DNA of 64,000 nucleotides, taken from positions 14,277 through 78,276 of the forward strand of contig SCSU01000066.1 in assembly GCA_004299275.1 (NCBI GenBank). Direction: 5' to 3'. A program made the position numbers and the translations under genes. The notes beneath the pieces are model-generated. The model did no database searches. It worked only from the letters and a program-made list of their open reading frames with translations, and was not told where the DNA came from. This DNA comes from Patescibacteria group bacterium (GTDB taxonomy: Bacteria; Patescibacteriota; Patescibacteriia; 2-12-FULL-57-11). Shown in pieces: positions 3,228 through 61,610 of this stretch (position 1 is the stretch's first letter; the number at the start of each line of letters is the position of its first letter).

Positions 3228-3300
3228 TTCGTATTTTCGTACCCATTCGTACTTTCGTCGTCTGATTATTCGTAAATTAGCGTTGATTCGTAATTCGTAT
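3228..3300. repeat. TTCGTAA/ATTCGTA heptamer array (locus A), just upstream of ruvB
   Basis: cattcgtactttcgtcg...attcgtaaatt...gattcgtaattcgtatcc. Related arrays occur at 4262-4360 and 45699-45748. Confidence 0.7.
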
Positions 3301-3400
3301 CCTATAAAAAAACCGCCTCGGGCCGTGGCCTCTAGCGGAGATGGACCTGTCCACCGGCTTGCCCCCCGAATCCGCCAGTTGGCGGAGAAGGGGGGAGCTC

Positions 3401-3688: not shown

Positions 3689-3702
3689 TTTTCCCTCCGG
3701 TG

Positions 3703-4152: not shown

Positions 4153-4261
4153 GTTCCCCTCCTTTGTTTGGGCGCGATGAAGGTATCAGGTAATTTTTTT
4201 TGAGGCAAGTGGATGCTCGCCAGAGGCTCGACCTCCTCAGAGGTCGAGCCTCTGGCGAGCA

Positions 4262-4360
4262 TTCGGTTATTCGTACGTTCGTCGCCTGCTTAGTCGTACT
4301 TTCGCAAAATTCGTAATTCGTAGATTTGTACTGATTCGTAATTCGTAATCCGTAATTCGT
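4262..4360. repeat. TTCGTAA heptamer array (locus B), preceded on the - strand by a hairpin plus T-run terminator
   Basis: attcgtaattcgtagatttgtactgattcgtaattcgtaatccgtaattcgtaaccc. Then ataaaaaaaccgcgagacgtgtagtccgcgg, which is a rho-independent terminator in - sense. Confidence 0.7.
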
Positions 4361-4451
4361 AACCCATAAAAAAACCGCGAGACGTGTAGTCCGCGGCGGG
4401 GGCCGTCCTTCGCTAAAGCTACGGACGGTAAATGGCGTGCGATGACTCCGC

Positions 4452-4736
4452 TCATTGGATTTTGAAGCTGATGGAGCGGTTCCGGATGGTGCTCTGGCGC
4501 ACACGGTTGGGGCCGAGCGCTCGTTCGACGATGAGCGCGAGGAACCTCCAGACGATGGCGTCTTTGGGCGGAACAATCATCGGGCCGGCCCAGACGTCGA
4601 AGAGGGTCCCGCCCGAGTCGAAGAGGCGCACCTCCATACTGCCGTCCTCCCCGACGCTGTCCCAGCTGATTTGCACTTCCCCGATGCCCGCCTGGTGTCT
4701 GGTCAGGTGGTTGTGGAGCTCTTCCGACGGTGTCAC
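4452..4736 (-). CDS. hypothetical protein (B'-type paralog)
   Basis: 94 aa, homologous to 3401..3688. Confidence 0.55.
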   Translation of the reverse strand: MTPSEELHNHLTRHQAGIGEVQISWDSVGEDGSMEVRLFDSGGTLFDVWAGPMIVPPKDAIVWRFLALIVERALGPNRVRQSTIRNRSISFKIQ

Positions 4737-4845: not shown

Positions 4846-4867
4846 GGTGCCTGGGGTGGGACTCGGG
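4846..4867 (-). repeat. 3' fragment of tRNA-Leu (T-loop to CCA), partial direct duplication
   Basis: tggtgcctggggtgggactcg matches the 3' ~20 nt of the intact tRNA at 4996-5078. Perfect hairpins at 4898-4920 and 4951-4996 lie between the fragment and the intact gene. Confidence 0.7.
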
Positions 4868-4995
4868 TTCGCCTTGGAGCGGCTCACCCCTGGGCTTGCG
4901 CCGGTCCGATACCATCGGACCGGCTCGAGCCCGTTCGACTCCCACATTTCGGGAACACTTCGGAAAGCCTCGCATAGAAGCGAGGCTTTCCGAAG

Positions 4996-5078
4996 TGCCT
5001 GGGGTGGGACTCGAACCCACACGGCCTTGCGGCCACTCAATTTTAAGTCGAGCGCGTATACCATTCCGCCACCCAGGC
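4996..5078 (-). tRNA. tRNA-Leu (anticodon TAA), long variable arm
   Basis: 7-bp acceptor stem gcctggg/cccaggc, anticodon loop cttaaaa, T-arm gggttcgagtccc, no encoded CCA. Confidence 0.85.
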
Positions 5079-5348
5079 AAAGCTTTCTTGCAACATCATC
5101 CTTAAGGTACTTTTCCCCTTGGAAGTCTTGAGGTATTTTTCTCTTCTGATTGCGTCATCTTTTGAAAGGAATACCTCGAAAAAGAGCAGTTTAACCGGCA
5201 GCACCCGTCGCGTCGTCCATGTTTTACCCGCGTTATGTTCCTTGATTCTGCTTTCAAGATTTTCAGTTCGGCCAATATAGAGCCTTCCGTCTCTTAAGCT
5301 TACCAAGACGTAAACCGTGTGCATAAAGGAGATTTTACCCAGCACCAC
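5043..5348 (-). CDS. GIY-YIG nuclease-domain protein (YhbQ/UPF0213-like)
   Basis: YVLVSLRDGRLYIGRTENLESRIKEHNAGK...REKYLK. The last 12 codons and the stop overlap the 5' end of tRNA-Leu, and the TAA stop codon is the tRNA anticodon. Confidence 0.75.
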   Translation of the reverse strand: MVLGKISFMHTVYVLVSLRDGRLYIGRTENLESRIKEHNAGKTWTTRRVLPVKLLFFEVFLSKDDAIRREKYLKTSKGKSTLRMMLQESFAWVAEWYTRST

Positions 5349-5388
5349 GTTGGGTGCTGGGTACCCCGTACCCTACGTGGTACGGGGT

Positions 5389-5471
5389 AAGTCGAGCGCG
5401 TATACCACCTGCCCCGTGCCGTCCCCCGACGTAACATCGGGGGACTGGTTCGGGGTTCCGCCACCCAGGCC
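5389..5471 (-). repeat. 5' fragment of tRNA-Leu (positions 1 to ~35) with a 49-bp insertion bearing a perfect 9-bp-stem hairpin
   Basis: taagtcgagcgcgtatacca[cctgccccgtgccGTCCCCCGAcgtaacaTCGGGGGACtggttcggggt]tccgccacccaggcc. Two further perfect hairpins lie at 5347-5388. Confidence 0.7.
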
Positions 5472-5473
5472 AG

Positions 5474-7213: not shown

Positions 7214-7220
7214 ATATCAG

Positions 7221-7263
7221 CACGGACCTTGAAGGTCCGTTTTTCAGACCTTTAAGGTCCGTG
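7221..7263. repeat. GGACCTTGAAGGTCC / CAGACCTTTAAGGTCC hairpin doublet, copy 2
   Basis: cacGGACCTTGAAGGTCCgtttttCAGACCTTTAAGGTCCgtg. Confidence 0.75.
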
Positions 7264-7266
7264 TCA

Positions 7267-27922: not shown

Positions 27923-29656
27923 CCTAACCGTTAGTTCGGTGCACGCCGCTTGGGAGCCCCCGAGCGGTTTTTCGTTTCTAAGAGCTTCCGCGTTTGGCGC
28001 ATTGTGTTGACGAGACGTTGTCTTTGGCCACTGACGCTAGTGGGTGTCCAAAGTTCAGCGGAACGTGGCGGGACTTTGACAATTTAATGACGAATAAAAA
28101 GGGTAATGAAAAATAGCTCCATAAGCGCGAAAAGGACGTTTTCGTGCTTCAGTGGAGTGAGAGCATACACTAAGGGCAAACGGTGGATGCCTCGACACAA
28201 GAAGCCGATGAAGGACGTAGCAGCCTGCGATAAGCCCCGGGGAAGTGGCAAGCAACTTTTGATCCGGGGATTTCCGAATGGGGAAACCCATCGTGCTGGA
28301 AGAGCACGGTATCGTGCGCTGAATCCATAGGCGTACGAAGGGCACCTGGCGAAGTGAAACATCTCAGTAGCCAGAGGAAGAGAGACAAAAAATGCTGACC
28401 CAACAGACAACCGACAACTTACAACGAACAACCGAAAGGTTGGGAGTTGTTCGTTGATCGTTGTCCGTTGCGTCAGCTGGATTCCCCTAGTAGTGGCGAG
28501 CGAACGGGGACCAGCCGAAACTCCAGGCGTGATTCACCGAACTGACCCCGACTTTACGTCGGGGCGCAGACGGCTGATGAAGGTGTAGGCCGCTGCGCCT
28601 GGAGGGTAACAGGATCGTGACGTCGGACGCCTACTCGTCCGGGTAGAGGAAACCGCAAGGACATGTCTTCCCAAGCAGAATCCGCTGGAAAGCGGAACCA
28701 GAGCGGGTGATAGTCCCGTACGCGAATGGGGACATAACTCTACTGTCGCGAACCCTCAGTACCGCGGGTCTCGTGAAAGCCTGCGGGAAAGCGCCGCGAC
28801 TATGCGGCAAGGCTAAATACTTCTTGTGATCGATAGTGAACCAGTACCGTGAGGGAAAGGTGAAAAGCAGCCCGGAAGGGCGATGAAACAGTATCTGAAA
28901 CCGTTTGCTTACAAGGAGTCAGAGCCGTGCGCAGCACGGCGACTATCAACTACCAACTATCAACAAAACAACGGTCAATAATTCTGTTGCCCGTTGTGTG
29001 TTGTAAGTTGTGTGTTGGTTGTTGCCGCGCTGTGCGCGGTGATGGCGTTCCTATTGAAGAATGAGCCAACGAGTTTGCCGTGCGTCGCTTAGGTTAAGTC
29101 CCTGAGGGGACGAAGCCGGAGCGAAAGCGAGTCTGAATAGGGCGTATGGACTTTAGAGGCGGAGTTGGAGCCGGCGCGCAAGCGTCAAACCTCCAACTTC
29201 TCACCTCTAATTTCCAAAGGTGGCGCACGCAAGACCCGAAACCCGGTGACCTAGCCATGACCAGGGTGAACTCCGCCGAAAGGCGGAGGGAGGCCCGAAC
29301 CCGTAAGCCGTGCAACACTTTGGGATGAGTCGTGGTTAGCGGAGAAATTCCAATCGAACTGGGTGATAGCTGGTTCTCCCCGAAATAGCTTGAGGGCTAG
29401 CGTCGGTTACACCTCGCGAGGGGTAGAGCACTGAAAGGAAAGCGGTGGAGCAATCCTACGCGTTCCTACCAAACTCCGAATACTCGCGGGGCATCCCGGC
29501 AGTCAGAGCATGGGGGCTAAGCTCCATCGCTCAAAAGGGAAACAGCCCAGATCGCAGTCTAAGGCCCCTAAATCTTCCCGACCTAAAGTCGGGACTCCGA
29601 CACCGCAAGGTCGTCGGAGCGGTTAAGTGTCAAAGGTTGTGGAGTAACTTAAACAA

Positions 29657-29687
<31 letters not shown>

Positions 29688-30780
29688 TAAAGAAAGCGTA
29701 ACAGCTCACTGGTCAAGTCGCTCTGCGCCGAAAATATACCGGGGCTAAAACCGAGTGCCGAAGACGCGACTCCGACGTAAGTCGGAGGGTAGGGGAGCAT
29801 TCTGTCCGCGCTGAAGCCGCGCCGTAAGACGCGGTGGAGCGAACAGAAGGGAGAATGTTGGCATAAGTAGCAAAAAGACGGGTGAGAACCCCGTCCGCCG
29901 TAAACCCAAGGTTTCCTGGGCAACGCAAATCGTCCCAGGGTTAGTCGGTCCTAAGGCGAGGCCAAGAGGCGTAGCCGATGGATGAGCAGGTTAATATTCC
30001 TGCACTACGGCCGTGTCAGGCGCGAGAGGACGCGTCGCAATATCTTCCGAGTTCGAAGGCTACACTTCCGGTGTCGCAAGCCGGCCGCGAGGCAAATCCC
30101 GCGGCGCAAAGCAAGCGATGCCGGCTAGTCTGCGAGTAATCGCGGGCAAGGGAAGAAAATGTGGCGCCTAGAAAAGTCTCGCGATAACGGCATGGCCGCA
30201 CCCGTACCGGAAACCGACACAGGTGGGTGGGCATAAGTGTGCCCAGGCGTACGAGAGAAACATCGTTCAGGAACTCGGCAATACAGCGGCCGTAACTTCG
30301 GGATAAGGCCTACCCCGACGTAAAGTCGGGGTCGCAGCGAAAGACGCTTAGCGACTGTTTACCAAAAACACAGGTCCCTGCGAAGTCGAAAGACAATGTA
30401 TAGGGGCTGATGCCTGGCCAGTGTCAGAACGTTACGGGGAGAGGTCATGGCCGACGCAAGTCGGCCGGCAGCCTTGAACCTAAGCGCTGATGAACGCCGG
30501 CGATAACTATAATCGTCCTAAGGTTCCCTGAATCACTGGCAAGTGGTTCCGGGTAGGACTGGGACGATTATCGAATGGTGAACAAGCAAGCTACCTTGCT
30601 CTGCAGCAATGCAGAGAAAAAGTCCGTTAATGGCTAAATACCTACGTTTCCGAAGAACTAGGTAGGGAAGTCCGATTTTTCGGACCCCGAGAGACCATAC
30701 GCCATGCTCCCGACATACCGTCGGGATGAAGACATGGTCCTTCGTTTAAGGAATCGGAGAGCGAAATTCCTTGTCGGGTG

Positions 30781-30811
<31 letters not shown>

Positions 30812-31050
30812 GAGCGACTGTCTTAACGATGTACTCGGCGAAATTGCAAGATGAGTGAAGATGCTCATTACCCGTGGTTAGACGAAAAGACCCCGTGAAG
30901 CTTTACTACAACTTGCTATTGGCTGCATGCTTCGCCTGTTCAGCGTAGGTGGGAGGTCCGACGAAAGTCGGACCAACAATGAGACACCACCCTTGCGCTG
31001 CGTGCAGTCTCATCTCCGGCCGTGATCCGGCTGGGGAGACAGTAGCTGGT

Positions 31051-31096
<46 letters not shown>

Positions 31097-31166
31097 TTTA
31101 CCAAGGTCGGCTTAGCTCCGATGGAAACGGAGCTGGACGTGCAAGCGCACAAGCCGGCTTTACTGC

Positions 31167-31198
<32 letters not shown>

Positions 31199-31268
31199 AA
31201 GCTAGTGATCCGACCGTTCGAAGTAGGACGGCGGAAGCTCATCGGATAAAAGCTACTCCGGGGATAAC

Positions 31269-32119
31269 CCCAAAAGGGTTGTTGTCCCGATCCGACGGTA
31301 ACGTCGGATCATGAAAACGGCTAATAACGGTGGAGTCCCGCCAGGCGGGATAATACCGTGGGAAGTTCTTCGTCTCATCATCATAATTATGATTGAACGC
31401 GAACGAAATATCGTGATTGGTTGCGTACTTGGCGACGGTTTTCTCCAATCGACCGGAAGACATAACGCGCGGCTGCGGCTCGAGCATTCCATCAAACAGA
31501 AGGAATATCTCGAGTGGAAGTGGCGCGAACTGGCGCGCTATATGCAAGATCGCCCCAAGCGCCTGGTTCGTTGGAATCCGGTTTGGAAAAAACGTTACGA
31601 GTATCTGCGATGCCAATCGCACAGTTCGCCGCAATTCGGCAAGCTTCGGGAATTATTCTATCGCGATCAGACGCGGCAGGTTCCCGATGAGATAGCCAAG
31701 TTGCTGCGCTCGCCGCTCTCGTTGGCGGTTTGGTTTATGGATGACGGATATTACTATACGCGAGATCGCGTAGCGTATATCTATCTTCCTAAACTATCCG
31801 CCGATGACATTCGGCGTTTGTGTCAAGCATTAAATGATGATTTTGATCTTCATCCGAAGGTCGAACGCAAGAAAACTGGGGCACTAAACCTCAAATTTTC
31901 TGCGGCAGAAACGAAAAAATTAATTAAGATAATCGCCCCGCATATAATCAAAAGTATGCGGTACAAAATCGGCGAAGAACCCCGTATCGACTGAGTCCTA
32001 TGGACGAGGTGGCGCAGAGGAGGGAATATCCGCGCCACAATATGCCGTACTCCTTGTCTGGCGAGACAAGGATGAAGATATAGTCAGTGCCCTTAGTAAT
32101 AAGGGAGTAAAACATGAAC
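31269..32119 (+). mobile_element. group I intron 1 in the 23S peptidyl-transferase region (after GGGGATAAC), carrying a LAGLIDADG ORF
   Basis: The exon sequence GATAAC|AGGCTGATC is split by ~850 nt. Confidence 0.75.
31311..31994 (+). CDS. LAGLIDADG homing endonuclease (intron-encoded)
   Basis: Two LAGLIDADG-type motifs, [11 protein letters not shown] and [10 protein letters not shown]. Confidence 0.85.
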
Positions 32120-32200
32120 AGGCTGATCGGGTCCAAGAGTCCACATCGACGACCCGGTTTGGCACCTCGATGTCGGCCCGTCGCATCCTGGGGCTGGAGA

Positions 32201-32937
32201 AAACATACCTTCTCTCCTGCGAGGAAACTCGCGGGTAATAAACAAGCTCAAACGGTAGAGACCACACCATACGACCTTCCTGTTTCGGAGGTCCCAGGTC
32301 TGCTATAGTGCAGATGTATGACGGTTAATGCCGTAGGAAAGGAATGCGTTGAAGTCGATCGAGCATATCTTGCCGGTCTCATTGACGGTGATGGTGCCAT
32401 CATGGCTATCATCGAACCGCACAGTGAGAAGAAATTTCGTTTCCGTGTTCGGATCGAAGTAAAAGTGACTCAAAAGCATGAGGAAGACGTCTCGTTTTTG
32501 CCGAAACTTTTGGGTTGCGGATTGATTCGAACAAATAGGACAACGTATGAGTGGATTACACGAGACCAGCAACATGTCTTGCGTATCCTCTCAATGGTTC
32601 GTCCTTATACGAGAATGAAAAATCGGCAGATGGAAATAGCAATGAAGATCATCCGTACTCCGATACGGACTCAGGGTGATCTTTTGCGCGTTGCTCGATT
32701 GGCAGATGCATTGGCGCGTTTCAACGTGCGATCCAACAATCGCCGTAGGAACTATGCGACAATGATCGAAACGCATTTCTCCTCTAACGACTGATTGGTA
32801 AACGTTGGGTTTACCATGAGATATGCCCCGCCATGGCGGGGGTATCATACGGCTTGCACCTGTGTTGTGTCCGGTGACGGATATCAATATGGTGATGGAA
32901 TAGTCTGATACTCGCGGAAACGCGAGATAACAAAAAT
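32201..32937 (+). mobile_element. group I intron 2 in the 23S (after CCTGGGGCTGgag), carrying a LAGLIDADG ORF
   Basis: The exon sequence GGGGCTG..AGGTCCCAAGGGT is split by ~740 nt. Confidence 0.75.
32318..32794 (+). CDS. LAGLIDADG homing endonuclease (intron-encoded, single-motif type)
   Basis: YLAGLIDGDG motif. Confidence 0.85.
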   Translation: MTVNAVGKECVEVDRAYLAGLIDGDGAIMAIIEPHSEKKFRFRVRIEVKVTQKHEEDVSFLPKLLGCGLIRTNRTTYEWITRDQQHVLRILSMVRPYTRMKNRQMEIAMKIIRTPIRTQGDLLRVARLADALARFNVRSNNRRRNYATMIETHFSSND

Positions 32938-32965
32938 GAGGTCCCAAGGGTTTGGCTGTTCGCCA

Positions 32966-33288
<323 letters not shown>

Positions 33289-33630
33289 TCGGTCTCCTAT
33301 CTACCACGGGCGCAGAAACTTGCGGGGGCGCTCTCTCAGTACGAGAGGACCGGAGAGCACGAACCTCTTGTGTACCAGCTGTCCTGCCAAGGGCATCGCT
33401 GGGTAGCGAAGTTCGGAACGGATAAACGCTGAAAGCATCTAAGCGTGAAGCCGTCCCCAAGATTAGGTTTCATTACGAGACCCCAGAGAGATGATCTGGT
33501 TGATCGGCGGCAGGTGTAAGGCCCGCAAGGGTTTGAGCCGAGCCGTACGAATCGGTCCAGTGTGCTCCTCTAACCACTGAAGCACGAAGCCGTTCTTCAT
33601 TACCTATTTATTCGTCAATTTCAAAAGACA

Positions 33631-33662
33631 GAGATCCGATCTCCCATAGGAGATCGGATCTC
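33631..33662. repeat. GGAGATCC palindromic hairpin (GAGATCCGATCTCC-cata-GGAGATCGGATCTC) in the 23S-5S spacer
   Basis: Perfect 14-bp stem. Confidence 0.75.
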
Positions 33663-33687
33663 GATGTCGCTTTGGCCGCAGCATTCT

Positions 33688-33808
33688 CGGTGCCTCGAGC
33701 GAGGTGGTCACACCCGTTCCCATCCCGAACACGGCAGTTAAGCACCTCAGCGCCGATGGTACTTGGCGTAAACTAACGCCCGGGAGAGTAGGCCGGTGCC
33801 GAGTATAT
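33688..33808 (+). rRNA. rrf: 5S rRNA
   Basis: ggtggtcacacccgttcccatcccgaacacggcagttaagc...cccgggagagtaggccggtgccgag. Ends are approximate. Confidence 0.8.
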
Positions 33809-33902
33809 TGAGGCTAAAGTTGGCGCGGGGCAGGCACGGCAGCCCGCCTTCGCAAGCGCTACGGCGGACAAGCAGGCCCCGTACCAAAGCCGCCCAAACA
33901 AG

Positions 33903-34037
33903 GGCGGCTTTTGGTTCGGGGTTAAGCACCTCAGCGCCGACCTGCCCTGTACCGTCCGACGCGCGTCGGACTGGTACGGGGGTGGTACTTGGCGTAAACT
34001 AACGCCCGGGAGAGTAGGCCGGTGCCGAGTATATTGA
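33903..34037 (+). repeat. partial duplicate of the 5S 3' half, interrupted by a 38-nt near-perfect hairpin insertion
   Basis: ggttaagcacctcagcgccga[cctgccctgtaccgtccgacgcgcgtcggactggtacggg]ggtggtacttggcgtaaactaacgcccgggagagtaggccggtgccgagtat, plus the same 3' flank as the intact 5S. Confidence 0.75.
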
Positions 34038-34165
34038 GGCCAAAGCTGGCGCGGGGTAGACCGGCGCCGTGACCCTGAACTCTTTTTGGTTTTATAGTTG
34101 ACGCGGCGGAATAGATGCGATAGCGTTTCTTCACCAATAGTGTCGGGTCGGCGTAACGTTATTCT

Positions 34166-34837
34166 ATGGCCATTGACCGCGTCATCCTTGACCTCGACAA
34201 CACCCTTTTCCATACTTCCAATTTTAAGGTTGCCCTGCTCGGCGCGCTCAAACCGCTCGGGGTAACTGACGAGGCTTTCTGGGGAACATACCGCCATGCT
34301 CGGGATCCTCACCATGGAGCCTGCCAGTATCGTTTTAAAAATCATGTTGATTTAATCGCTCAACGCCAACCGCTTGACCAGGCCGCCGCGTTGAACGCCC
34401 TCGGAGAGGTGCTCGCGCGTTCCGAGGAATTTCTTTTTCGCGACAGCAAAGATTTCCTTTCCCGAATTATTTCCTTGGGAATCTCTTCAATCCTGCTTAC
34501 TCGCGGCGACCCTGAGTTTCAGCAGGCGAAGATTGCGGCGAGCGGCATAGACAAATTAGTGGAGCGCATCATCGTCACCGAAGAACCGAAAATTAATCGT
34601 ATTTCTGAATGTCTCGAGGGAGCGCGCGGTGCGGTTTACATGGTCGATGACCACCTGGACGCCACCTTGGAGATCGTCCGGCGTTACCCGAATATCGTGC
34701 CGATTTTAAAACGCCGCCCTGACCTGCCGCCGGAGCGTTACCTTGGCTCCCGGATTCTTAACTTCAAAACTTTGGAGGAAATCCGCGATTATTTAACTAT
34801 AGTCCAGGCGACCAACCCCCACTATGCCGGGGAGTGA
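34166..34837 (+). CDS. HAD-superfamily hydrolase
   Basis: DLDNTLF motif I and conserved later motifs. Confidence 0.75.
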   Translation: MAIDRVILDLDNTLFHTSNFKVALLGALKPLGVTDEAFWGTYRHARDPHHGACQYRFKNHVDLIAQRQPLDQAAALNALGEVLARSEEFLFRDSKDFLSRIISLGISSILLTRGDPEFQQAKIAASGIDKLVERIIVTEEPKINRISECLEGARGAVYMVDDHLDATLEIVRRYPNIVPILKRRPDLPPERYLGSRILNFKTLEEIRDYLTIVQATNPHYAGE

Positions 34838-35627
34838 AAACTCGACTGACGTCATTATTCTCGCCGCCGGCAAAGGCAAACGCATGCACCAGGCCTTCCC
34901 CGGTGTGCCCAAGGCGCTGGTGCCGCTCGCGGGCAAACCGATGCTCATCCGCGTGCTGGACGCCGTGGAGCGTTCCGGCGCGGCGCGGCGCGTGTTTGTA
35001 GTCGTTGGCCCGGCGGTGGAAGCAAAGGTGCGCGCCGCCCTCAAAGGACGCGAGATAACTTTTGTTCTCCAGGGCGAACCGAAGGGCACGGGCCATGCCG
35101 TGCTCTGCGCCCGGCCGCAAGTTTCGGATGACGCCGAGCACCTGCTCGTGCTCTACGGCGATCACCCGCTCTACTCCGCCGGAACGATTCGCCGCCTGGT
35201 TCGGCAACATATAAAAAGCAGCGCGCCGGTGACCATGCTTACCGTGCCGCTCGCCGATTTCAAAGACTGGCGGGCGTCATTTGCCGACTGGGGCCGCGTA
35301 ATCCGCAGCGCGGACGGCAAGTTCAAACAAGTGGTTGAAGCCAAGGATGCCACGGGTAAGCAGCTAGCGGTGACCGAGGTCAATCCGGCGCTCTATTGCT
35401 TTCGCGCCGACTGGCTTTGGCGGCATCTGCCGCAAGTTAAGTGCGAAAATGTTCATAGGGAATATTATCTGCCCGATGTCCTCGGTTTTGCGGTAAAAGA
35501 AGGGGAGATGGTGGAGACCGTTCCCGTGCCCGACGCCCGCGAGGCGATGGGCGCCAACACTCCCGAACAACTCTCGATGCTGGAGGAAATTTACGCCAGA
35601 GTCAAAGAGATTTGGGGAAAAGGGTAG
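34824..35627 (+). CDS. sugar-phosphate nucleotidyltransferase (GlmU N-terminal / NDP-sugar pyrophosphorylase-like)
   Basis: VIILAAGKGKRM...PKALVPLAGKPML signature. Confidence 0.75.
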   Translation: MPGSENSTDVIILAAGKGKRMHQAFPGVPKALVPLAGKPMLIRVLDAVERSGAARRVFVVVGPAVEAKVRAALKGREITFVLQGEPKGTGHAVLCARPQVSDDAEHLLVLYGDHPLYSAGTIRRLVRQHIKSSAPVTMLTVPLADFKDWRASFADWGRVIRSADGKFKQVVEAKDATGKQLAVTEVNPALYCFRADWLWRHLPQVKCENVHREYYLPDVLGFAVKEGEMVETVPVPDAREAMGANTPEQLSMLEEIYARVKEIWGKG

Positions 35628-35680
35628 CTACGCAGTCGAGTTCCGATTCCCTCCGGAGATCGGCTCTCGTGCGTTATTTT

Positions 35681-36667
35681 ATGGACTCCAAAAAAATCGT
35701 TACCATTGGCGGCGGAACGGGCAATTTTACCGTTCTCTCCGGACTTAAGGAATACAAGCATCAGCTTTCGGCCATAGTTTCCATGGCCGACGACGGCGGC
35801 TCAACCGGCGTGCTCCGGACCGAGCTCGGCGTCCTGCCGCCCGGCGACGTGCGGCAGTGCCTGGTCGCGCTCTCCCGCTCCTCGGCGCTCTTACGAGACC
35901 TCTTCACTTACCGTTTCGAGTCCGGCCGTTTCGAGGGCGCTAATCTCGGCAACCTTTTCCTCTCGGCGCTCCAAAAAATCACCGGCGATTTTGATACGGC
36001 CGTTCAGCGCACCGGCGAAGTACTTCGCATTCGCGGGAGCGTCATTCCGGTCACAACCGAAAACATCACTTTGGTGGCGACTCTCTCCGATGGCTTCGTC
36101 GTGCGCGGTCAGGCGGAGATTAACAATACCGTTCTTACTGCTGCTGTGTCCTTGACTCTTGACCCGATGCCGCGGGCTAATCCGCGCGCGCTCGCGGCCA
36201 TCGCCGAGGCGGACCTGGTCGTCATCGGGCCGGGGGACCTCTTCACCAGCATTATCCCCAATCTTCTCGTCCGAGGCGTGCCGGCAGCGCTCAGCTCCTC
36301 GTCGGCGCGGAAAGTTTATGTCGCCAACTTGGTCAATAAGCCGAATCACACAAAGGATTTCCATGTCGCCGACTATGCGCTGGTAATCGAAAAATATCTC
36401 GGCGCGCGCGCCTTTGATGCGGTCATCTACAACACCGAGCCGCCCTCAGCCGAGCTTTTGTCGCGCTACGCGCGGGAAGGGGAGAGGCCGGTCCGCTCTG
36501 ACGGCGAAGGGTTCGAGGGAGCGGCATATCGGGCAATCGGCGCGCCGCTCCTCTCCGAGAAAATTGTCGCCCCGCAGAACCCCCATGACCAGATTGAACG
36601 CACTCTTATCCGCCACGACTCGGTAAAATTGGCCAAAGTTTTGCTCGAGCAATTTCTCGACCGATAG
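35681..36667 (+). CDS. YvcK/CofD-like (UPF0052) gluconeogenesis factor family protein
   Basis: IVTIGGGTGNFTVLSGL...SMADDGGSTG...PGDVRQCLVAL. Confidence 0.85.
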   Translation: MDSKKIVTIGGGTGNFTVLSGLKEYKHQLSAIVSMADDGGSTGVLRTELGVLPPGDVRQCLVALSRSSALLRDLFTYRFESGRFEGANLGNLFLSALQKITGDFDTAVQRTGEVLRIRGSVIPVTTENITLVATLSDGFVVRGQAEINNTVLTAAVSLTLDPMPRANPRALAAIAEADLVVIGPGDLFTSIIPNLLVRGVPAALSSSSARKVYVANLVNKPNHTKDFHVADYALVIEKYLGARAFDAVIYNTEPPSAELLSRYAREGERPVRSDGEGFEGAAYRAIGAPLLSEKIVAPQNPHDQIERTLIRHDSVKLAKVLLEQFLDR

Positions 36668-36674
36668 GACTAAT

Positions 36675-37949
36675 ATGAAAACCATCCTTGACCTCCATAT
36701 CCACTCGCGTTTTTCGCGGGCCTGTTCCAAGGACCTCACCCTTCCGAATATCGCCCGGTGGTGCGAGCGGAAGGGGATTGACATTGTGGGCACTGGAGAT
36801 TTTACGCATCCGGTCTGGCTTTCGGAAATCAAAAACCAGCTCACCGAGAGCGAGCCGGGAATTTTTCGGCTCAGGATCGGAGATCCAATCTCCAGAACGG
36901 AGATTGGATCTCCAGCCCGTTTCATGCTCACGACCGAACTTTCCTCAATCTACAAACAGGGCGATAAGGTGCGTCGCGTGCACCATCTAATTTGCATGCC
37001 GACGATCGCGGCAGTAGAGCGTTTGGTCGCGGCGCTGGAAGCGCGCGGCTGTAACCTCAAGTCCGACGGCCGGCCGATTCTCGGCCTGAACTCCAAAGAA
37101 CTTCTACAGATAGTACTGGAAGCTGACAGCCGTTCGCTGCTCATCCCGGCGCACGCTTGGACGCCATGGTTCGCGATTTTCGGCTCGGAGTCCGGGTTTG
37201 ATTCCATTGAAGAATGTTTTGGTGACGAGTTAGCCAAGGAAATCCATGCCATCGAAACCGGACTTTCCTCGGACCCGCCGATGAATTGGCGACTGTCGGC
37301 GCTTGACCGCGTGATGCTCGTTTCCAATTCCGACGCGCACTCGCTCCGGAACCTCGGTCGCGAGGCGAATCAGCTGGACCTTGCCGAGCAGTCTTTTGAC
37401 GCTTTTTCCTCCATTTTGAAAAATCGGGACAGAACACGCTTTCTCCAAACGCTTGAATTTTTTCCCGAGGAGGGCAAGTATCACGCTGACGGCCATCGGC
37501 TCTGCGGCGCGCGCTTGACCCCGGCGGAGACTAAGCGGCAGGGCGGCAAGTGCCCGGTTTGTGGCAAGCCGGTCACGGTCGGCGTGCTCCATCGCGTGGA
37601 CGCGCTCGCCGACCGGCCGGAAGGGACGCGCTCGCCGAGCGCGGTGCCCTTTACCCATTTAGTACCGCTCGAAGAGGTCATTGCCGACACCCTCGGCAAA
37701 GGCAAGGGGACAAAAACCGTGAATGATTTGTATCTGAAGCTGACCGACATTGCGCCGGAGTTCTCGCTGCTCTTTGACTTTCCGCTTGCCGACCTCGCGG
37801 GAAGAGTTGCTGAACCGATTATTGAAGCGCTTCGTCGCTTGCGGGAGGGAAAGGTAAAAGTGCTCCCGGGCTACGACGGCGAGTATGGGACAATCAAAAT
37901 TTTTTCTGAAGAGGAACGACGCGGGCCGGCGCAGGGAAAATTAATTTAA
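36675..37949 (+). CDS. PHP-domain nuclease with a zinc ribbon, endonuclease Q-like
   Basis: LDLHIHSRFS PHP start, conserved His/Asp, and CPVCGKPVTVGVLHRV. Contains an in-frame 35-nt palindromic insertion at 36879-36913. Confidence 0.55.
   Translation: MKTILDLHIHSRFSRACSKDLTLPNIARWCERKGIDIVGTGDFTHPVWLSEIKNQLTESEPGIFRLRIGDPISRTEIGSPARFMLTTELSSIYKQGDKVRRVHHLICMPTIAAVERLVAALEARGCNLKSDGRPILGLNSKELLQIVLEADSRSLLIPAHAWTPWFAIFGSESGFDSIEECFGDELAKEIHAIETGLSSDPPMNWRLSALDRVMLVSNSDAHSLRNLGREANQLDLAEQSFDAFSSILKNRDRTRFLQTLEFFPEEGKYHADGHRLCGARLTPAETKRQGGKCPVCGKPVTVGVLHRVDALADRPEGTRSPSAVPFTHLVPLEEVIADTLGKGKGTKTVNDLYLKLTDIAPEFSLLFDFPLADLAGRVAEPIIEALRRLREGKVKVLPGYDGEYGTIKIFSEEERRGPAQGKLI
36879..36913. repeat. 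GGAGATCC palindromic hairpin inserted in-frame in a CDS (encodes ...GDPISRTEIGSPA...)
   Basis: GGAGATCCAATCTCC-agaac-GGAGATTGGATCTCC, a perfect 15-bp stem. Confidence 0.75.
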
Positions 37950-38000
37950 TACAAAACTTCCTCGCGATGCGGGGAAGTTTTGCGAAAGAACAAAGCGGGT

Positions 38001-38048
38001 TTAGCGCTTCTTCTTTTTTTTCATCGCCTTCTTTTTCTTCTTTGCCAT
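38001..38048 (-). other. 15-codon Lys-rich sORF (MAKKKKKAMKKKKKR) with a perfect ribosome-binding site
   Basis: ggaggtgaccgaaATGgcaaagaag...cgcTAA in - sense. Confidence 0.3.
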
Positions 38049-38258
38049 TTCGGTCACCTCCTTCCGTAAAAAGTTTTTCGATTGCGGCGCGGAAAAAATT
38101 TTCCCGCCCCGTTCGTCCGTATTGTCTCAAGTTTTTTTCTTGTCAACAAGAGAAATAGCGCGAGTTATGCACAGGTAAGATTTTTTTTCGCTTGATGCCG
38201 GCTATTTGGCATTCGGCCGAAGTTTGGTAAACTAAAGTCAAATACAATCTAAACTCTT

Positions 38259-38675
38259 ATGTTTGATTTTTTATTCTCCCTTAATTTTTTCTCGGACTTT
38301 GGACTGTTCGTTCTCCGTCTCGCCATTGCCGCGATTTTTATCGTTCATGGCGTTAAAAAGTGGGCGATGTGGAAGATGCAACCGTCGCCGCAGATGCCCG
38401 CGGGGATGCTCTCGGTTATGAAAATCCTTGCTATTGCCGAGCCGTTCGGGGGGCTGGCGCTGCTGGCTGGTTTTCTCACCCAGCTCGCCGCTCTGGGGTT
38501 CTCAATCATTATGCTCGGAGCGATTTACTATAAAACCCGGGTCTGGAAGACGCCCTTCGCCGCGCAGGACAAAATGGGTTGGGAATTTGACCTCGTCCTC
38601 CTAGCGGGAAACCTTCTGTTGCTTATCGCCGGCGCGGGCGTCCTTTCCCTCGATCGAGTGTTTTTGGGGTTGTAA
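38259..38675 (+). CDS. DoxX-family membrane protein
   Basis: Four TM helices and the characteristic DoxX hydropathy pattern. Confidence 0.5.
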   Translation: MFDFLFSLNFFSDFGLFVLRLAIAAIFIVHGVKKWAMWKMQPSPQMPAGMLSVMKILAIAEPFGGLALLAGFLTQLAALGFSIIMLGAIYYKTRVWKTPFAAQDKMGWEFDLVLLAGNLLLLIAGAGVLSLDRVFLGL

Positions 38676-38733
38676 TTTGGCCGAAAAAGAGATTGGACCT
38701 CCCGCGGAGGCCCAATCTCTGTTATTATTTCAT

Positions 38734-39714
38734 CTATCGTTTTTTCACGAGAAATGCCAGATACCCGGGCACGAATACATTCACCCCAGGAACCAGAATA
38801 AGGAGTCCAATCCATGATGGCGCGCCGCGCGTGACGGCAATCTTAATCCAAGTAATCGCGAAGGCGACGACATTGACTCCCGGGATCAGGTAGAGCACAT
38901 ACCAAAACCCTGGTTGGCCGGCGATCTCGATGCAGTAGAAAAAGTTGATGAGCGGTACCCAGGCGGCCCAACGATGCTCCCGTTTGGCATCGGCGGCGAG
39001 CACGGACAGGGCGTAGGAGAAGTAGAGGTGCACGGCCAGAAGGAAAAAGACATTGGCGATTCCCGGATCTTGCGAGTAGAGAAAAATCGCGATGATCGCA
39101 ATGACGGCGATTGCCCAGCGCGGCAGTTTTGTGCCGACGACGGAGACCGGTTTTGTAAAAAGCGGCTTTAGGCCCGCGCTCGGTGCCGCCGGCTGGACCG
39201 ACGGTTCTTGGAGCACTTTATAGACTTTGATTTCGTGCGGGATTCCCTTGAGATGCCGCACACCGACCTCGGCGCTCGGCACTTCGGCCTTGTTCATCGC
39301 GAGGTAAACCGCTTCGGTAAAGTAGATCTCGTTGACCTCGGCGATGCCCTCAATCCGCGCGGCGATGTTGACCGGCTCGCCGAAGACGTCGTTATCTTTC
39401 ACCGTCACCTCGCCGGAGTTGATAGCCACCCGCACCTCGATCCGCTCATTGGGGTGAGCCGAGGCATTGTGCGCTTTGAGGATGCGCTGGATTTCCATGC
39501 CGCAGAGGACGGCGTCGGTGGGACTCTCGAAAGTGACCAAAAAGGCGTCGCCGATGGTTTTGACCACTGTGCCGCCGAATTTTTCAAAGACCGGGCGCAC
39601 TAAGCGGTCATGTTCTTCAAGCAGTCCGAGGAGTTCTTCGCGAGTTTTCTCCGAGGACTTGACCGTATAATTCTTAATGTCCGTGAACATCACCGTCAGA
39701 TGCTTGGTTTGCAT
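38734..39714 (-). CDS. class III adenylate/guanylate cyclase with a C-terminal membrane domain
   Basis: VMFTDIKNYT...KTIGDAF...IEVRVAINSGEV..GEPVNIAARIE catalytic motifs, followed by four TM helices. Confidence 0.85.
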   Translation of the reverse strand: MQTKHLTVMFTDIKNYTVKSSEKTREELLGLLEEHDRLVRPVFEKFGGTVVKTIGDAFLVTFESPTDAVLCGMEIQRILKAHNASAHPNERIEVRVAINSGEVTVKDNDVFGEPVNIAARIEGIAEVNEIYFTEAVYLAMNKAEVPSAEVGVRHLKGIPHEIKVYKVLQEPSVQPAAPSAGLKPLFTKPVSVVGTKLPRWAIAVIAIIAIFLYSQDPGIANVFFLLAVHLYFSYALSVLAADAKREHRWAAWVPLINFFYCIEIAGQPGFWYVLYLIPGVNVVAFAITWIKIAVTRGAPSWIGLLILVPGVNVFVPGYLAFLVKKR

Positions 39715-39736
39715 ATATAGGTATCCTACTTTTATC

Positions 39737-39768
39737 AGGTTAGACCTTGCAAGGTCTAACCTTGACCA
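39737..39768. repeat. perfect palindrome TTAGACCTTGCAAGGTCTAA upstream of tRNA-Ile
   Basis: 20-bp perfect palindrome with the GACCTTGCAAGGTC core shared with 23706-23737. Confidence 0.6.
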
Positions 39769-39809
39769 TCGGCGGTGTTTTTTTTACACTTCCCTCGCGT
39801 TAAAGACAG

Positions 39810-39886
39810 GGGCGTGTAGCTCAGTTGGTTAGAGCGTCACACTGATAATGTGAAGGTCGGTGGTTCGACTCCACCCACGCCCACCA
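39810..39886 (+). tRNA. tRNA-Ile (anticodon GAT)
   Basis: gggcgtgtagctcagttggttagagc...ctGATaa...ggttcgactcc..cacgccca+CCA. Confidence 0.9.
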
Positions 39887-40862: not shown

Positions 40863-41309
40863 TTAAACCGCCAGACTTGCGATTATTATAAACCCCATGA
40901 GCCAGATGGTAAAAGCCGACATCAGACACCAAAAACACCAGGCGCGGATGACTTGCCACTGGAGGTAGGTGAGGAGGAGTGAGACGAGCGCCGCGGCGGC
41001 CACCAGAATTTTTAGGAAAATGTCCCACAAAGATGTCGGCTCAACGCCGATGACGAGCAGGGCGGCGATCGTAGCAATCACGATATAGGCCAAGAGCCCG
41101 AGGGTGTCATTGGGGACAATAAAAATTTTGTTGTATTTGCTCGTGAGCACTTGGGCACAGCCGCCGCCGATAGGGCAAATTGGTTTTTCCGCCGCAATTC
41201 TTTTTCGGATGAGATAGACGGTCTCGCTCACGCCAACAGCGGCCAGGGTAAAAAGCAGAGCAAAGGCGGTCATACCCGGTACTAGAATGCCGACTCCGAA
41301 CCCCGCCAT
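40863..41309 (-). CDS. vitamin K epoxide reductase (VKOR) family protein
   Basis: Loop cysteines CPIGGGC and active-site CFWC inside a TM helix; 4-5 TM topology. Confidence 0.65.
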   Translation of the reverse strand: MAGFGVGILVPGMTAFALLFTLAAVGVSETVYLIRKRIAAEKPICPIGGGCAQVLTSKYNKIFIVPNDTLGLLAYIVIATIAALLVIGVEPTSLWDIFLKILVAAAALVSLLLTYLQWQVIRAWCFWCLMSAFTIWLMGFIIIASLAV

Positions 41310-41347
41310 GCGGGATTCGGCCAGCGAACATCCTTTACGATTATTAG

Positions 41348-41391
41348 CACGGACCCTAAAGGTCCGTTTTTACAGACCTTCAAGGTCTGTG
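41348..41391. repeat. GGACCCTAAAGGTCC / CAGACCTTCAAGGTCTG hairpin doublet, copy 3
   Basis: cacGGACCCTAAAGGTCCgtttttaCAGACCTTCAAGGTCTGtg. Confidence 0.75.
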
Positions 41392-41464
41392 TCCAGCTTG
41401 CTGTCGTCGTTTCAGTACCGGGCATACCCGGCATTATAGCGCATTTGGAGCTGGATGAATTGCT

Positions 41465-43984: not shown

Positions 43985-45560
<1,576 letters not shown>

Positions 45561-45675
45561 AGAGAAAACCCCTCTACCCTCGCGGGTTTCGGGGCTCAAT
45601 CAATGAGTCATTACCCAACTTGCCTGCCATAGGCAGGCGTTGTTTTTGTTGTTGGAGTTTCACTCGAAAATTATA

Positions 45676-53990: not shown

Positions 53991-54023
53991 GGGGATAGTA
54001 TATAGAAAAAAAGGAGTGAATTA

Positions 54024-54040
54024 CAGACGTTGAACGTCTG
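54024..54040. repeat. CAGACGTTGAACGTCTG hairpin (TTGAA-loop family), left flank of the small zinc-ribbon gene
   Basis: Identical copy at 54472-54488; a degenerate copy at 60661-60677. Confidence 0.7.
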
Positions 54041-54145: not shown

Positions 54146-54409
54146 ATGAATATCGCGATAATCATCTGGGTCCTGTCTGTTGTTCTGACATTCATCGGGA
54201 TCCCGCTGACGATCTTTCTCTGGTTCAAATACCAGAAGTACAAAGACGGCCACTGTCCTGACTGCAAAACGCCACTCGAGAAGGGGGAGACTAGGACGGA
54301 TGTAGCTATCAGCAGCGGCTTCTTCGAGGACCAGACGGACTTGCATTGTCCTCGTTGCAAGAAGATCGCCAGGGTCGAGCATTACAACAGTTGGATGTAC
54401 GGCAACTGA
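54146..54409 (+). CDS. small membrane protein with two CxxC pairs (zinc-ribbon)
   Basis: TM helix; CPDC...CPRC. Confidence 0.5.
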   Translation: MNIAIIIWVLSVVLTFIGIPLTIFLWFKYQKYKDGHCPDCKTPLEKGETRTDVAISSGFFEDQTDLHCPRCKKIARVEHYNSWMYGN

Positions 54410-54471
54410 TGCCCCGCAGTCCTCGGTCCCGGACACGACGATGTCCGGTTTTTTATACCGAAAGTTGGTTA

Positions 54472-54488
54472 CAGACGTTGAACGTCTG
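54472..54488. repeat. CAGACGTTGAACGTCTG hairpin, right flank
   Basis: Exact repeat of 54024-54040. Confidence 0.7.
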
Positions 54489-55484: not shown

Positions 55485-55757
55485 GAGAATAAAATTTTTG
55501 TTCTGTGCGTAAGATGTGGGCAGAGCTGTGGGTAACAGGCCAAATGGGCGCTGATTTCGCTTGACCGCGCACAAAAACGATGATATATTTATCCTTCCCA
55601 CATTATGCCCGGTAGTGAAACGCCGACAGTGTTACTAAAGCAAAGTTTCTCCTGGACAATGCAGTATATTCCAGAACAGAGGCTGATAATATTAAAGTAA
55701 AGTTCGCTTGCTGAACCCCGCCTAGCGGGGTTCAGAGTCGGCGTTCTACTACCGGGT

Positions 55758-56360
55758 ATGAGCAATCCTTACGAAATTCGCAGTCAATTTTTGATTCCGA
55801 CAGTGATTGAAAAAACTTCCTACGGCGAACGGGCTTATGATATTTATTCCCGTTTACTTAAGGACCGCATAATTTTTCTCGGTGACGAAATCCATGACGG
55901 CCTGGCCAACACCGTCATCGCCCAGATGCTTTTTTTGGAAAGCCAGGACAAAGAAAAAGACATTAAGCTCTACATCAATTCTCCGGGCGGCTCGGTGACC
56001 GCCGGCATGGCGGTCTACGACACCATGCAGTACATCAAGCCGGATGTTTCCACCATCTGTATCGGCTTGTCCGCCTCGATGTCGGCCATCCTGCTCGCCG
56101 CGGGAAAAAAGGGGAAGCGTTTTGTCCTGCCCAATTCCGAAATCATGATTCACCAGATTATGGGCGGCGCCGAGGGTCAGGCCACGGACATCAAAATCCG
56201 CGCCGAGCGCATTCTCAAAATGAAGCAACGTTTAAACGAGCTTTTGGCCCGCCACACCGGGCAAAAAATTGAAAAGGTGGAAAAGGACTCCGACCGCGAT
56301 TATTTTATGTCGCCGACCGAGGCGGTTGCCTATGGTTTGGCGGACAAGATCATCTCTTAG
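55758..56360 (+). CDS. clpP: ATP-dependent Clp protease proteolytic subunit
   Basis: [15 protein letters not shown]..., catalytic Ser/His/Asp context, IMIHQ. Confidence 0.95.
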
Positions 56361-59494: not shown

Positions 59495-59506
59495 AACCGG
59501 TACTAG

Positions 59507-59550
59507 CACAGACCTTGAAGGTACGTTTTTACAGACCTTCAAGGTCTGTG
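59507..59550. repeat. CAGACCTTGAAGGTACG / CAGACCTTCAAGGTCTG hairpin doublet, copy 4
   Basis: gcaCAGACCTTGAAGGTACgtttttaCAGACCTTCAAGGTCTGtg, in the divergent region between hsp20 and 59622. Confidence 0.75.
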
Positions 59551-59621
59551 TACCGCTTCATTATATAAAAGAGAAATGCGCTATACTATAGCTGTCGCGT
59601 TTAATCTATCCCCAGACGATT

Positions 59622-61194: not shown

Positions 61195-61216
61195 GGCCCC
61201 ATCGTCTAACGGCTAG
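61195..61216 (+). repeat. 5' fragment of tRNA-Glu (acceptor to D-loop), followed by two perfect hairpins
   Basis: ggccccatcgtctaacggctag equals the first 22 nt of the intact tRNA-Glu at 61539. Then CCCGGCgaCCCTGGCaaaGCCAGGGgGCCGGG and TCCGGCctGCGGCttctGCCGCggtaGCCGGA. Confidence 0.7.
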
Positions 61217-61280: not shown

Positions 61281-61553
61281 ATGCCACATACCATGTATTA
61301 CGTTTACATTCTCGAACGCTTGAAAGACGCTCGATGGTACATTGGCAGTACAAAAAATGTTGAGGAGCGACTCACCTATCACAATGCCGGGAAAATCACG
61401 TCAACGCGTCCCCATCGGCCTTATCGGCTTGTCTATCTCGAATCGTTCGAGAACAAAACTCAAGCGCTTCTCCGTGAGAAACAAATCAAAAAATCGGGTA
61501 TCATCCGGAAAGCGATTAAATCGCGAGTTGAAAAATACGGCCCCATCGTCTAA
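61281..61553 (+). CDS. GIY-YIG nuclease-domain protein (YhbQ/UPF0213-like), second copy
   Basis: YYVYILERLKDARWYIGSTKNVEERLTYHNAGK...REKQIK. The stop codon TAA lies in the D-loop of the downstream tRNA-Glu (15-nt overlap). Confidence 0.75.
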   Translation: MPHTMYYVYILERLKDARWYIGSTKNVEERLTYHNAGKITSTRPHRPYRLVYLESFENKTQALLREKQIKKSGIIRKAIKSRVEKYGPIV

Positions 61554-61610
61554 CGGCTAGGACGCCACGCTTTCAATGTGGCAATGGGGGTTCGATTCCC
61601 CCTGGGGCTA
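61539..61610 (+). tRNA. tRNA-Glu (anticodon TTC)
   Basis: ggcccca..gtctaacggctaggac..ccacgcTTTCaatgtgg..gggggttcgattccccc..tggggct+a. Confidence 0.85.

Follow-up and report, generated by a model that had tools for sequence, protein, structure and literature searches.

Rickettsia palindromic elements (RPEs) are transposase-free palindromes that lie in frame in housekeeping genes as well as in non-coding DNA and are kept at orthologous sites (PMC10969869). The GC42 GC clusters of yeast, GC-rich palindromes of about 40 nt, proliferate, fuse into arrays that are tandem or composite, and mark recombination junctions; intron-encoded endonucleases have been proposed to mobilise mitochondrial GC clusters (PMC4478555). 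Free-standing GIY-YIG homing endonucleases (T4 Seg, with SegB in a tRNA cluster, and those of fungal mitochondria) consist of a small GIY-YIG open reading frame (ORF) in or beside a conserved gene; they are present or absent among relatives and duplicate part of their target while its function is kept (PMC2330249, PMC7487136). Introns of Patescibacteria tRNA genes and the group I intron of tRNA-Leu(UAA) lie in the anticodon loop, the site in tRNA-Leu being position 34/35 (PMC13011429). Here we describe a 64-kb stretch of contig SCSU01000066.1 from a Patescibacteria group bacterium (positions 14,277 to 78,276; hereafter the window), in which a hairpin element, named E, that shares some traits with the two palindrome families is inserted into displaced fragments of a 5S rRNA gene and a tRNA-Leu gene, and in which a GIY-YIG nuclease cassette that shares traits with the endonucleases, and its location with the introns, lies in tRNA genes. 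No description of E or of the GIY-YIG cassette was found in the searchable literature, and searches for E sequence strings and for palindromic elements of the candidate phyla radiation (CPR) returned nothing.

Displaced RNA-gene fragments and their hairpins

The initial annotation had noted partial duplicates of the 5S rRNA and tRNA-Leu genes with inserted hairpins; both are real, and the size of the 5S insert is corrected from 38 to 42 nt. The two inserts are homologous to each other, with the common form CCTG-CCCYGTRCC-GTCC...GGAC-T-GGTWCGGGG, match CCTGCCCYGTRCCGTCC...GGACTGGTWCGGGG, and fold as DNA hairpins beyond shuffled controls (z = -4.2 and -4.7; 0/200 shuffles). The 42-nt insert is made up of CCTG, the 9-bp outer stem, a perfect inner palindrome, the bulged T and an extra G. 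Comparison with the intact genes showed zero target-site duplication for this insert (33941-33982) and zero duplicated target bases for the 48-nt insert in tRNA-Leu (5408-5455). The motif GGTWCGGGG occurs six times in the window, against 1.4 expected, with 6/6 within the tRNA-Leu and 5S loci, and a generalised hairpin scan of the 64 kb (CCNNGNNCC...GGNNCNNGG, at most one mismatch) returned five E-type hairpins, all confined to these two loci, and one chance match, compared with 1.3 in shuffled sequence. Besides the two inserts, the five comprise three hairpins with the outer stem of E at the breakpoints of the fragments, two beyond tRNA-Leu nt 35 (5338-5361 and 5364-5387) and one ahead of the 5S fragment (33877-33921).

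The order at the 5S locus is intact gene, trailer, a 43-nt spacer (33834-33876) with no second match in the window, an E-type hairpin and a displaced 3' fragment carrying E. From the matches of 33921-33940 and 33983-34059 to the gene, the latter with a blastn-short E-value of 1e-30 against 33757-33833, it follows that the second copy comprises 5S nt 52-119 and about 29 nt of trailer; the hairpin at 33877-33921 directly adjoins the first base of this fragment. The two copies of the block have mismatches only at 33815, 33820 and 33831. Read against the 5' leader (33669-33690), the two C-to-T differences between them retain G.U pairing, and the trailer of the second copy pairs perfectly with that leader (inverted repeat 33669-33690 / 34025-34046). 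An independent assembly (L135, Logan SRR8426596; L and P numbers are labels for compared loci and proteins) is 100% identical over window positions 34011-39846, begins within the second 5S copy and has the bases specific to that copy. Family-level relatives (L136, L138, L140/141) have one 5S gene followed by a TrmB-family gene and a HAD gene, the last only 56-59% identical; they carry a single gene, not a simple tandem duplication, and show neither the 5S duplication nor E at this locus. No E-type hairpin was found in 60 kb of sequence from family-level relatives, and no other 5S gene is present among the E loci.

At the tRNA-Leu locus, a 93-aa GIY-YIG ORF runs into the complete tRNA-Leu(UAA) gene, its stop codon being the TAA anticodon, and one of two cassette hairpins (hpA) adjoins tRNA nt 35 of the displaced 5' half, which carries the E copy, at the anticodon-loop breakpoint (Table 1). 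The PF01541 domain is matched with 60.5 and 59.9 bits (cut-off 22.6). The module recurs in four other lineages. Read as on the minus strand of the window, its order in L144, L148 and L150-159 is tRNA-Leu nt 1-35 ending ...ACTTA, then hairpin-TA-hairpin-TAAAATC, the GIY-YIG ORF and a complete tRNA-Leu(UAA). L146 has the mirror order of tRNA, ORF, ACTTA-hairpin-TA-hairpin-TAAAATC and displaced 3' half. The cassette hairpin stems differ by lineage through compensatory changes (CCCCGAACC/GGTTCGGGG, CCCAGCACC/GGTGCTGGG, CCCAGAACC/GGTTCTGGG, CCCCAAACC/GGTTTGGGG), and the junction hairpins have the same stem as the insert, which bears out the link to tRNA/GIY-YIG modules that had been suggested initially. 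L144, L148 and L150 have the module of 5' half, cassette and complete tRNA without any insert in the 5' half. A syntenic relative (L162/L163, PolX 70% identical) has an empty site, in which PolX is followed by an uninterrupted tRNA-Leu(UAA) with no ORF, fragment or hairpins, and the window fragment beside PolX is therefore the displaced resident 5' half. These comparisons show the tRNA-Leu fragment to be a by-product of cassette insertion and not of the inserted hairpin, which had been one of the two initial options.

The same design is found in a tRNA-Gln gene (L051), whose displaced half holds two E copies 21 nt apart with no target duplication, and in a tRNA-Arg gene of a Bacteroidota genome (L161), where a CCTG-headed palindrome lies in the D loop of the displaced half. 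A further module of the window involves tRNA-Glu; GC-rich hairpins of different sequence follow its 5' fragment. A group I intron in the tRNA-Leu module was rejected, as no ribozyme core was detected (no Intron_gpI match at E <= 10 in 5080-5480) and a complete tRNA follows the ORF; by comparison, the 23S intron of the window reaches 79 bits. A survey of Patescibacteria tRNA introns makes no mention of hairpins or duplications, and no occurrence of "GIY-YIG" was counted in it. The GIY-YIG domain, together with occupied and empty sites among relatives, marks the cassette as a predicted free-standing homing endonuclease gene.

Distribution, structure and genic location of E

We searched one genome per GTDB species (596 Gb) with the reverse-complement pattern CCCCGWACCAN{4,34}GGYACRGGGCAGG and obtained at least 119 loci, where by our own estimate about 4 chance matches are expected. 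Among 80 matches listed by title, 56 belong to CPR/Patescibacteria (Saccharibacteria, Paceibacterota, Nomura-, Uhr-, Doudna-, Yanofsky-, Terry- and Jacksonbacteria and others) and 16 to Omnitrophota, and the few matches in Proteobacteria (L002, L012, L091, L112) resemble coding-sequence coincidences. The small hairpin element postulated in the initial annotation thus exists: the two window inserts, far from being unique, are related to each other and belong to one widespread family with members in well over 100 genomes.

E measures 27-48 nt, with typical copies of 27, 33, 36 or 42 nt, the commonest being CCTGCCCCGTACCGAGCTTGCTCTGGTTCGGGG. Its outer stem of 9 bp, CCCYGTRCC/GGTWCGGGG, is invariant and contains a bulged T, with a T.T mismatch in 47/70 distinct copies, whereas the inner stem varies yet stays paired (113 cells changed on both sides versus 43.7 in shuffles, 0/500 as high). 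The loops are mainly C-GNA-G or CTTG, both of which are very stable DNA mini-loops. G or A is favoured at position -1 and T at +1 (G and T each in 82/117), and tandem arrays occur with spacings of 0, 7 and 12 nt. Unusual flanks of E occur at L004, L115, L029 and L056: several such loci have flanks that form an inverted repeat, for instance GACATCGGATG-E-...CATCCGATGTC, and others have heptamers or nonamers in short tandem runs (ctctgacac, tccccaa, attcctg). E directly precedes a consensus DnaA box, TTATCCACA, in six genomes (L043, L064, L071, L085, L089, L095), and this position suggests that these copies lie in or beside replication origins.

Rfam returned nothing for E, either at the gathering threshold or at E <= 10, and a known RNA family was rejected on that basis. 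Carriage by phages or plasmids was likewise rejected, with 0 matches in IMG/VR and only partial chance matches in phage and plasmid collections. A general association with tRNA genes was also discarded, 8/121 copies lying within 300 nt of a tRNA, mildly above the roughly 4 that we estimate to be expected.

The initial annotation had pictured an element that inserts into RNA genes; E is not specific to these: 49/117 genuine copies (about 40%) lie inside long open frames, in frame within protein genes, with all six frames used. The length is a multiple of three in 47/52 intragenic copies, and the five exceptions include coincidental matches. Homologous proteins differ by clean gaps of the length of E (L027/L058, L049/L045, L055/L025, L093/L015, L011/L117), as in an ABC ATPase with ...ILFED[PVPQGYGAG]KDILKL... 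versus ...IIFNN---------KDVMRL.... Relative to the host gene, 36/49 intragenic copies have their CCTG strand in antisense and 13 in sense orientation (p = 0.0014). Host genes with an in-frame E encode enolase, IF-2, aminoacyl-tRNA synthetases and ABC ATPases, and E is found in RNase P RNA as well. The L022 enolase (~3300-4700) has four mini-insertions relative to its 70%-identical orthologue L017, namely one canonical E, one CCTGCCCCGTAGG... variant and a 24-nt repeat with a CTTG head that is present twice. In L009 (609-1149), the RNase P RNA gene still scores 146 bits and spans 541 nt against a model of 367 positions; the three E-type hairpins within it, of which one lies at P3, may be expansion segments derived from E. 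Taken together, the comparisons with intact gene copies and between homologues show E to be a precise, duplication-free insertion that would be translated when within genes.

Table 1. Window coordinates of the features at the tRNA-Leu, 5S rRNA and tRNA-Glu loci
Feature	Position	Strand	Basis or remark
Complete tRNA-Leu(UAA)	4995..5078	-	ARAGORN and Rfam
GIY-YIG nuclease ORF, 93 aa	5043..5324	-	Translation; Pfam PF01541, 60.5 bits; identical to NCBI protein P0018
Cassette hairpin hpB, CCCAGCACC-6 nt-GGTGCTGGG	5338..5361	.	Same position in L144, L146, L148, L150, with compensatory changes
Cassette hairpin hpA, CCCCGTACC-6 nt-GGTACGGGG	5364..5387	.	Stem is that of E
Displaced resident tRNA-Leu fragment, nt 16-35	5388..5407	-	20/20 identical to 5044-5063
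E element, 48 nt, in D loop of displaced 5' half	5408..5455	+	Between tRNA nt 15 and 16
Displaced resident tRNA-Leu fragment, nt 1-15	5456..5470	-	3 nt away from PolX stop codon
Intact 5S rRNA gene	33686..33804	+	Rfam RF00001, 90.2 bits, full model; sole complete 5S
Duplicated block, copy 1: 5S nt 52-119 and 29-nt trailer, inside functional gene	33737..33833	+	Repeat search
Unique 43-nt spacer between 5S copies	33834..33876	.	Weak hairpin CCGCC..GGCGG; minus strand reads CCTG...
E-type breakpoint hairpin, CCCCGTACC-AAAGCCGCCC aaacaa GGGCGGCTTT-T-GGTTCGGGG	33877..33921	+	Generalised hairpin scan; DNA fold z = -6.0
Displaced 5S fragment, piece A (5S nt 52-71)	33921..33940	+	20/20 identical to 33737-33756
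E element in 5S fragment, 42 nt, CCTGCCCTGTACCGTCCGACGCGCGTCGGACTGGTACGGGGG	33941..33982	+	Between 5S nt 71 and 72
Displaced 5S fragment, piece B (5S nt 72-119 and trailer)	33983..34059	+	74/77 (96%) to 33757-33833
tRNA-Glu 5' fragment, 22 nt	61195..61216
GIY-YIG ORF of tRNA-Glu module, 86 aa	61293..61553		Ends at TAA in D loop
Complete tRNA-Glu	61539..61610

Further repeats and insertions occur in the window. A 19-nt copy of the tRNA-Leu 3' end with flank lies at 4847-4865, about 130 nt downstream of the intact tRNA-Leu, which therefore has remnants on both sides; a separate hairpin, ggtccgataccatcggacc, is close to this 3' remnant. A perfect 14-bp palindrome, GAGATCCGATCTCC cata GGAGATCGGATCTC (33631-33662), separates the 5S gene from the 3' end of 23S; it falls within the initially annotated interval and is unrelated to E. 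The 23S rRNA gene itself (28160-33570) has kilobases of insertions, and among them is a group I intron (32887-33227, 79 bits) that precedes the 23S 3' end (~33400-33560). LAGLIDADG ORFs and a group I intron are also present in the 23S genes of relatives L136 and L140. A 48-nt intergenic repeat of two hairpins (ACGGACCTTGAAGGTCCGT ttttt ACAGACCTTCAAGGTCTGT; 7219-7265, 41346-41393, 59504-59551 and also 148-167) forms a family of three to four copies of 89-92% identity that differs from E. The 16S rRNA gene (43989-45566), whose strand is opposite to that of 23S/5S, is part of a 14-kb segment bounded by inverted repeats at 41270-41426 and 55604-55761 (60 nt at 87%, 26 nt at 92%), and a repeat-mediated inversion may have separated the rRNA operon. 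Finally, an identical 20-nt hairpin motif, TTACAGACGTTGAACGTCTG, at 54021-54040 and 54469-54488 brackets a small ORF (~54147-54410) encoding a membrane segment and CxxC...CxxC motifs.

Proposed origin of the fragments and mobilisation of E

We propose a two-layer scenario, in which cassette insertion displaces a fragment and E then lands in that fragment, and we consider it as a whole reasonably probable. The comparisons above show the first layer for tRNA-Leu and the second for both fragments: (i) a GIY-YIG cassette made up of twin 24-nt hairpins, an ORF of ~90 aa and its own copy of tRNA nt 1-35 has inserted into the anticodon loop of tRNA-Leu(UAA); (ii) the 5' half brought by the cassette has fused with the 3' half of the resident gene, and a complete tRNA results; (iii) the resident 5' half has stayed behind upstream, no longer functional, and the hairpins sit where the gene was broken; (iv) each displaced fragment has later gained one copy of E. 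E is a non-autonomous palindrome of 27-48 nt that inserts precisely, usually between a purine and T, and persists where it is tolerated, that is, in frame within protein genes, within RNase P RNA at its variable helices, between genes and in dead fragments. E and the cassette hairpins would be handled in trans by one hairpin-recognising enzyme through their common recognition stem, candidates being the small GIY-YIG nuclease or an as yet unseen transposase of the HUH/Y1 type that works on single-stranded DNA. New hairpins would land preferentially beside existing hairpins or in dispensable DNA, and insertion near existing hairpins would be the reason why all window copies of E lie beside cassette-type junctions. 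Alternatively, insertions that break direct repeats may stabilise the cassette against deletion.

The 5S duplication shares the topology of the tRNA-Leu locus in having an intact gene, short cargo, an E-type breakpoint hairpin and a displaced fragment. At both window loci, a hairpin adjoins a displaced fragment that starts (T)TAAG, with the secondary E copy 19-20 nt further in. Because the 5S topology is the L146 arrangement without the ORF, we infer an event of the same kind, and by this analogy the partial 5S copy is probably an ORF-less or ORF-deleted counterpart of the nuclease cassette event. A further extension, that the shared stem is the cis-acting site of stand-alone ~90-aa GIY-YIG nucleases, with the cassette as the autonomous and E as the non-autonomous form, is put forward only tentatively, as we judge it rather doubtful. 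If true, it would define a new class of nuclease-driven hairpin mobile element that moves without transposase or integrase and spreads between phyla, and a large share of the short in-frame insertions in essential proteins and structured RNAs of CPR and Omnitrophota would stem from this class.

Several observations weigh against the two-layer scenario. The 5S block has no ORF, a cassette targeting 5S was not found elsewhere, and its origin is read by analogy only. The junction hairpin and E are 19-21 nt apart in three fragments (window tRNA-Leu, window 5S, L051), but 12 nt apart in L161 and 32 nt in L146. The twin cassette hairpins are flanked by TA and have neither the CCTG head nor the inner stem, so they are relatives of E and a distinct unit. 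A GIY-YIG gene lies within 8 kb in only 5/119 E loci among the matches listed, for which reason a cis-linkage of E to such genes was rejected. A neighbouring transposase as mobiliser was rejected too: no recurrent transposase was found beside E, and ORF clustering over the 119 listed 8-kb loci gave housekeeping families only. Lastly, base-identical copies of E occupy orthologous sites of proteins that are 60-70% identical (L080/L084, L017/L022), which would not be expected of a neutral relic and points to constraint or homogenisation.

The order of events could be the reverse of that proposed here, with E first hitting an essential RNA gene and the survivors keeping or regenerating an intact copy by partial duplication; the duplication would then follow from E insertion, which was one option of the initial annotation. 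The E-type hairpin exactly at the 5S breakpoint fits such an order, as does L115, where E lies at the junction of a 39-nt direct repeat made up of a tRNA-Lys 3' fragment and its flank. E is spanned by direct repeats of 14 nt or longer in 5/121 copies versus 4/1170 control positions. We nevertheless hold this order to be unlikely, since L144, L148 and L150 have the tRNA-Leu duplication but no insert in its 5' half, cassette and empty site explain the duplication, and flanking duplication is lacking at 116/121 copies. It is also quite improbable, in our judgement, that E is a conserved functional cis-element (a replication, segregation or nucleoid-protein hairpin, or an RNA signal) that is selected for and merely tolerated in fragments. 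The invariance of the stem across phyla, with its T.T mismatch and bulged T conserved, the identical copies in diverged orthologues, the six copies directly ahead of a DnaA box and the antisense bias would all be expected of such an element; its clean presence or absence among homologues, the use of all six frames and both orientations, the tandem arrays at 0, 7 and 12 nt and the lack of E in the 60 kb from family-level relatives would not. A T-run follows only 5/68 intergenic copies, so E is not an intrinsic terminator, a role that was rejected and whose loss counts against a cis-element.

Target-primed duplication, which the initial annotation had offered as an option, would make the fragments reverse-transcribed copies of tRNA halves or of the 5S 3' part. 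The tRNA fragments do start exactly at mature nt 1 and stop in the anticodon loop, which is where cleavage yields tRNA halves, but the fragment occupies the original position of the tRNA 5' half beside PolX in the empty-site comparison, the 5S fragment contains 29 nt of untranscribed or processed trailer, and there is no reverse transcriptase among those ORFs inspected near both loci. As nothing indicates a reverse-transcriptase mechanism, we regard this origin as very unlikely. We give hardly any credence to the idea that hairpin, 20 nt of gene and hairpin form a guide-like unit (a mini-array or omega-RNA-like) targeting the adjacent RNA gene, although pieces of 20 nt (tRNA-Leu), 19-20 nt (5S) and 21 nt (tRNA-Gln of L051) each lie between two related hairpins. 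A metagenome scan for an E end, 0-30 nt and an E start gave genuine pairs at 0, 1, 7 and 12 nt and none at 19-21; L161 and L146 show spacings of 12 and 32 nt, and no RNA-guided effector gene lies near either locus. The gene sequence is colinear past the second hairpin, so that a plain insertion suffices, and a CRISPR-like or guide array was rejected on these spacings and on the colinearity of the 'spacer' with the gene fragment. As for an artefact of the metagenome-assembled genome, the independent assembly does break at 34011, within the repeat, yet it is 100% identical and includes the bases specific to copy 2, three positions and a structured insert tell the two copies apart, and element and cassette recur in more than 100 unrelated assemblies, which makes the chance of an artefact negligible.

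Relation of E and the cassette to known systems

CPR/Patescibacteria and Omnitrophota have tiny, gene-dense genomes whose proteins and RNAs are rich in unexplained small insertions, and one hairpin element of about 30 nt, conserved nearly base for base across phyla, appears to supply some of them. E gives a sequence tag for locating such insertions and alerts annotators to split tRNA and 5S "pseudogenes", and the GIY-YIG/twin-hairpin cassette offers a compact model of how a homing endonuclease survives in essential genes.

E shares with RPEs the frame-preserving insertion in protein-coding genes. RPEs, however, measure about 100-150 bp and are known from one genus, whereas E, with 27-48 nt, has an invariant 9-bp stem and a freely varying top and occurs in many CPR phyla and Omnitrophota; compared by size, E is not an RPE because size alone excludes membership. 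The double-hairpin elements of Allomyces are similar organellar palindromic elements. GC42 is organellar as well and makes an AG target duplication, unlike E, for which none is seen in the two exact window cases. A miniature inverted-repeat transposable element was rejected, as no base is duplicated in either window insert or in the two L051 inserts, and the termini CCTGCCCC... and ...CGGGG led us to reject an integron attC site (R''/R', RYYYAAC / GTTRRRY).

Repetitive extragenic palindromic (REP) sequences and IS608 ends are palindromes with a tetranucleotide head, an extrahelical base and stable single-stranded DNA hairpin loops. Like REP/REPIN-RAYT and IS200/IS605 ends, E is short and imperfectly palindromic, opens with a conserved tetranucleotide at its 5' end, has an extrahelical base and loops typical of stable single-stranded DNA hairpins, and makes no target-site duplication: of the imperfect 20-40-nt palindrome with such a head, it has CCTG and a 9-bp stem with the bulged T and the T.T mismatch. 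In contrast to REPs, which are extragenic, species-specific and flank their own RAYT gene, E is often intragenic (49/117 genuine copies in long open frames) and spans phyla, with no Y1 gene seen nearby in the 119 listed 8-kb loci. The cassette differs from the free-standing GIY-YIG endonucleases in that its ~90-aa protein is a catalytic domain only, in its twin covarying, TA-flanked junction hairpins and in its target, a tRNA anticodon loop at which the whole tRNA is regenerated; unlike the tRNA-Leu intron, it has no detectable ribozyme and restores the gene by duplication, not splicing. Our finding is thus a real and new variation on RPE, REP and GC-cluster elements and on free-standing homing endonucleases.

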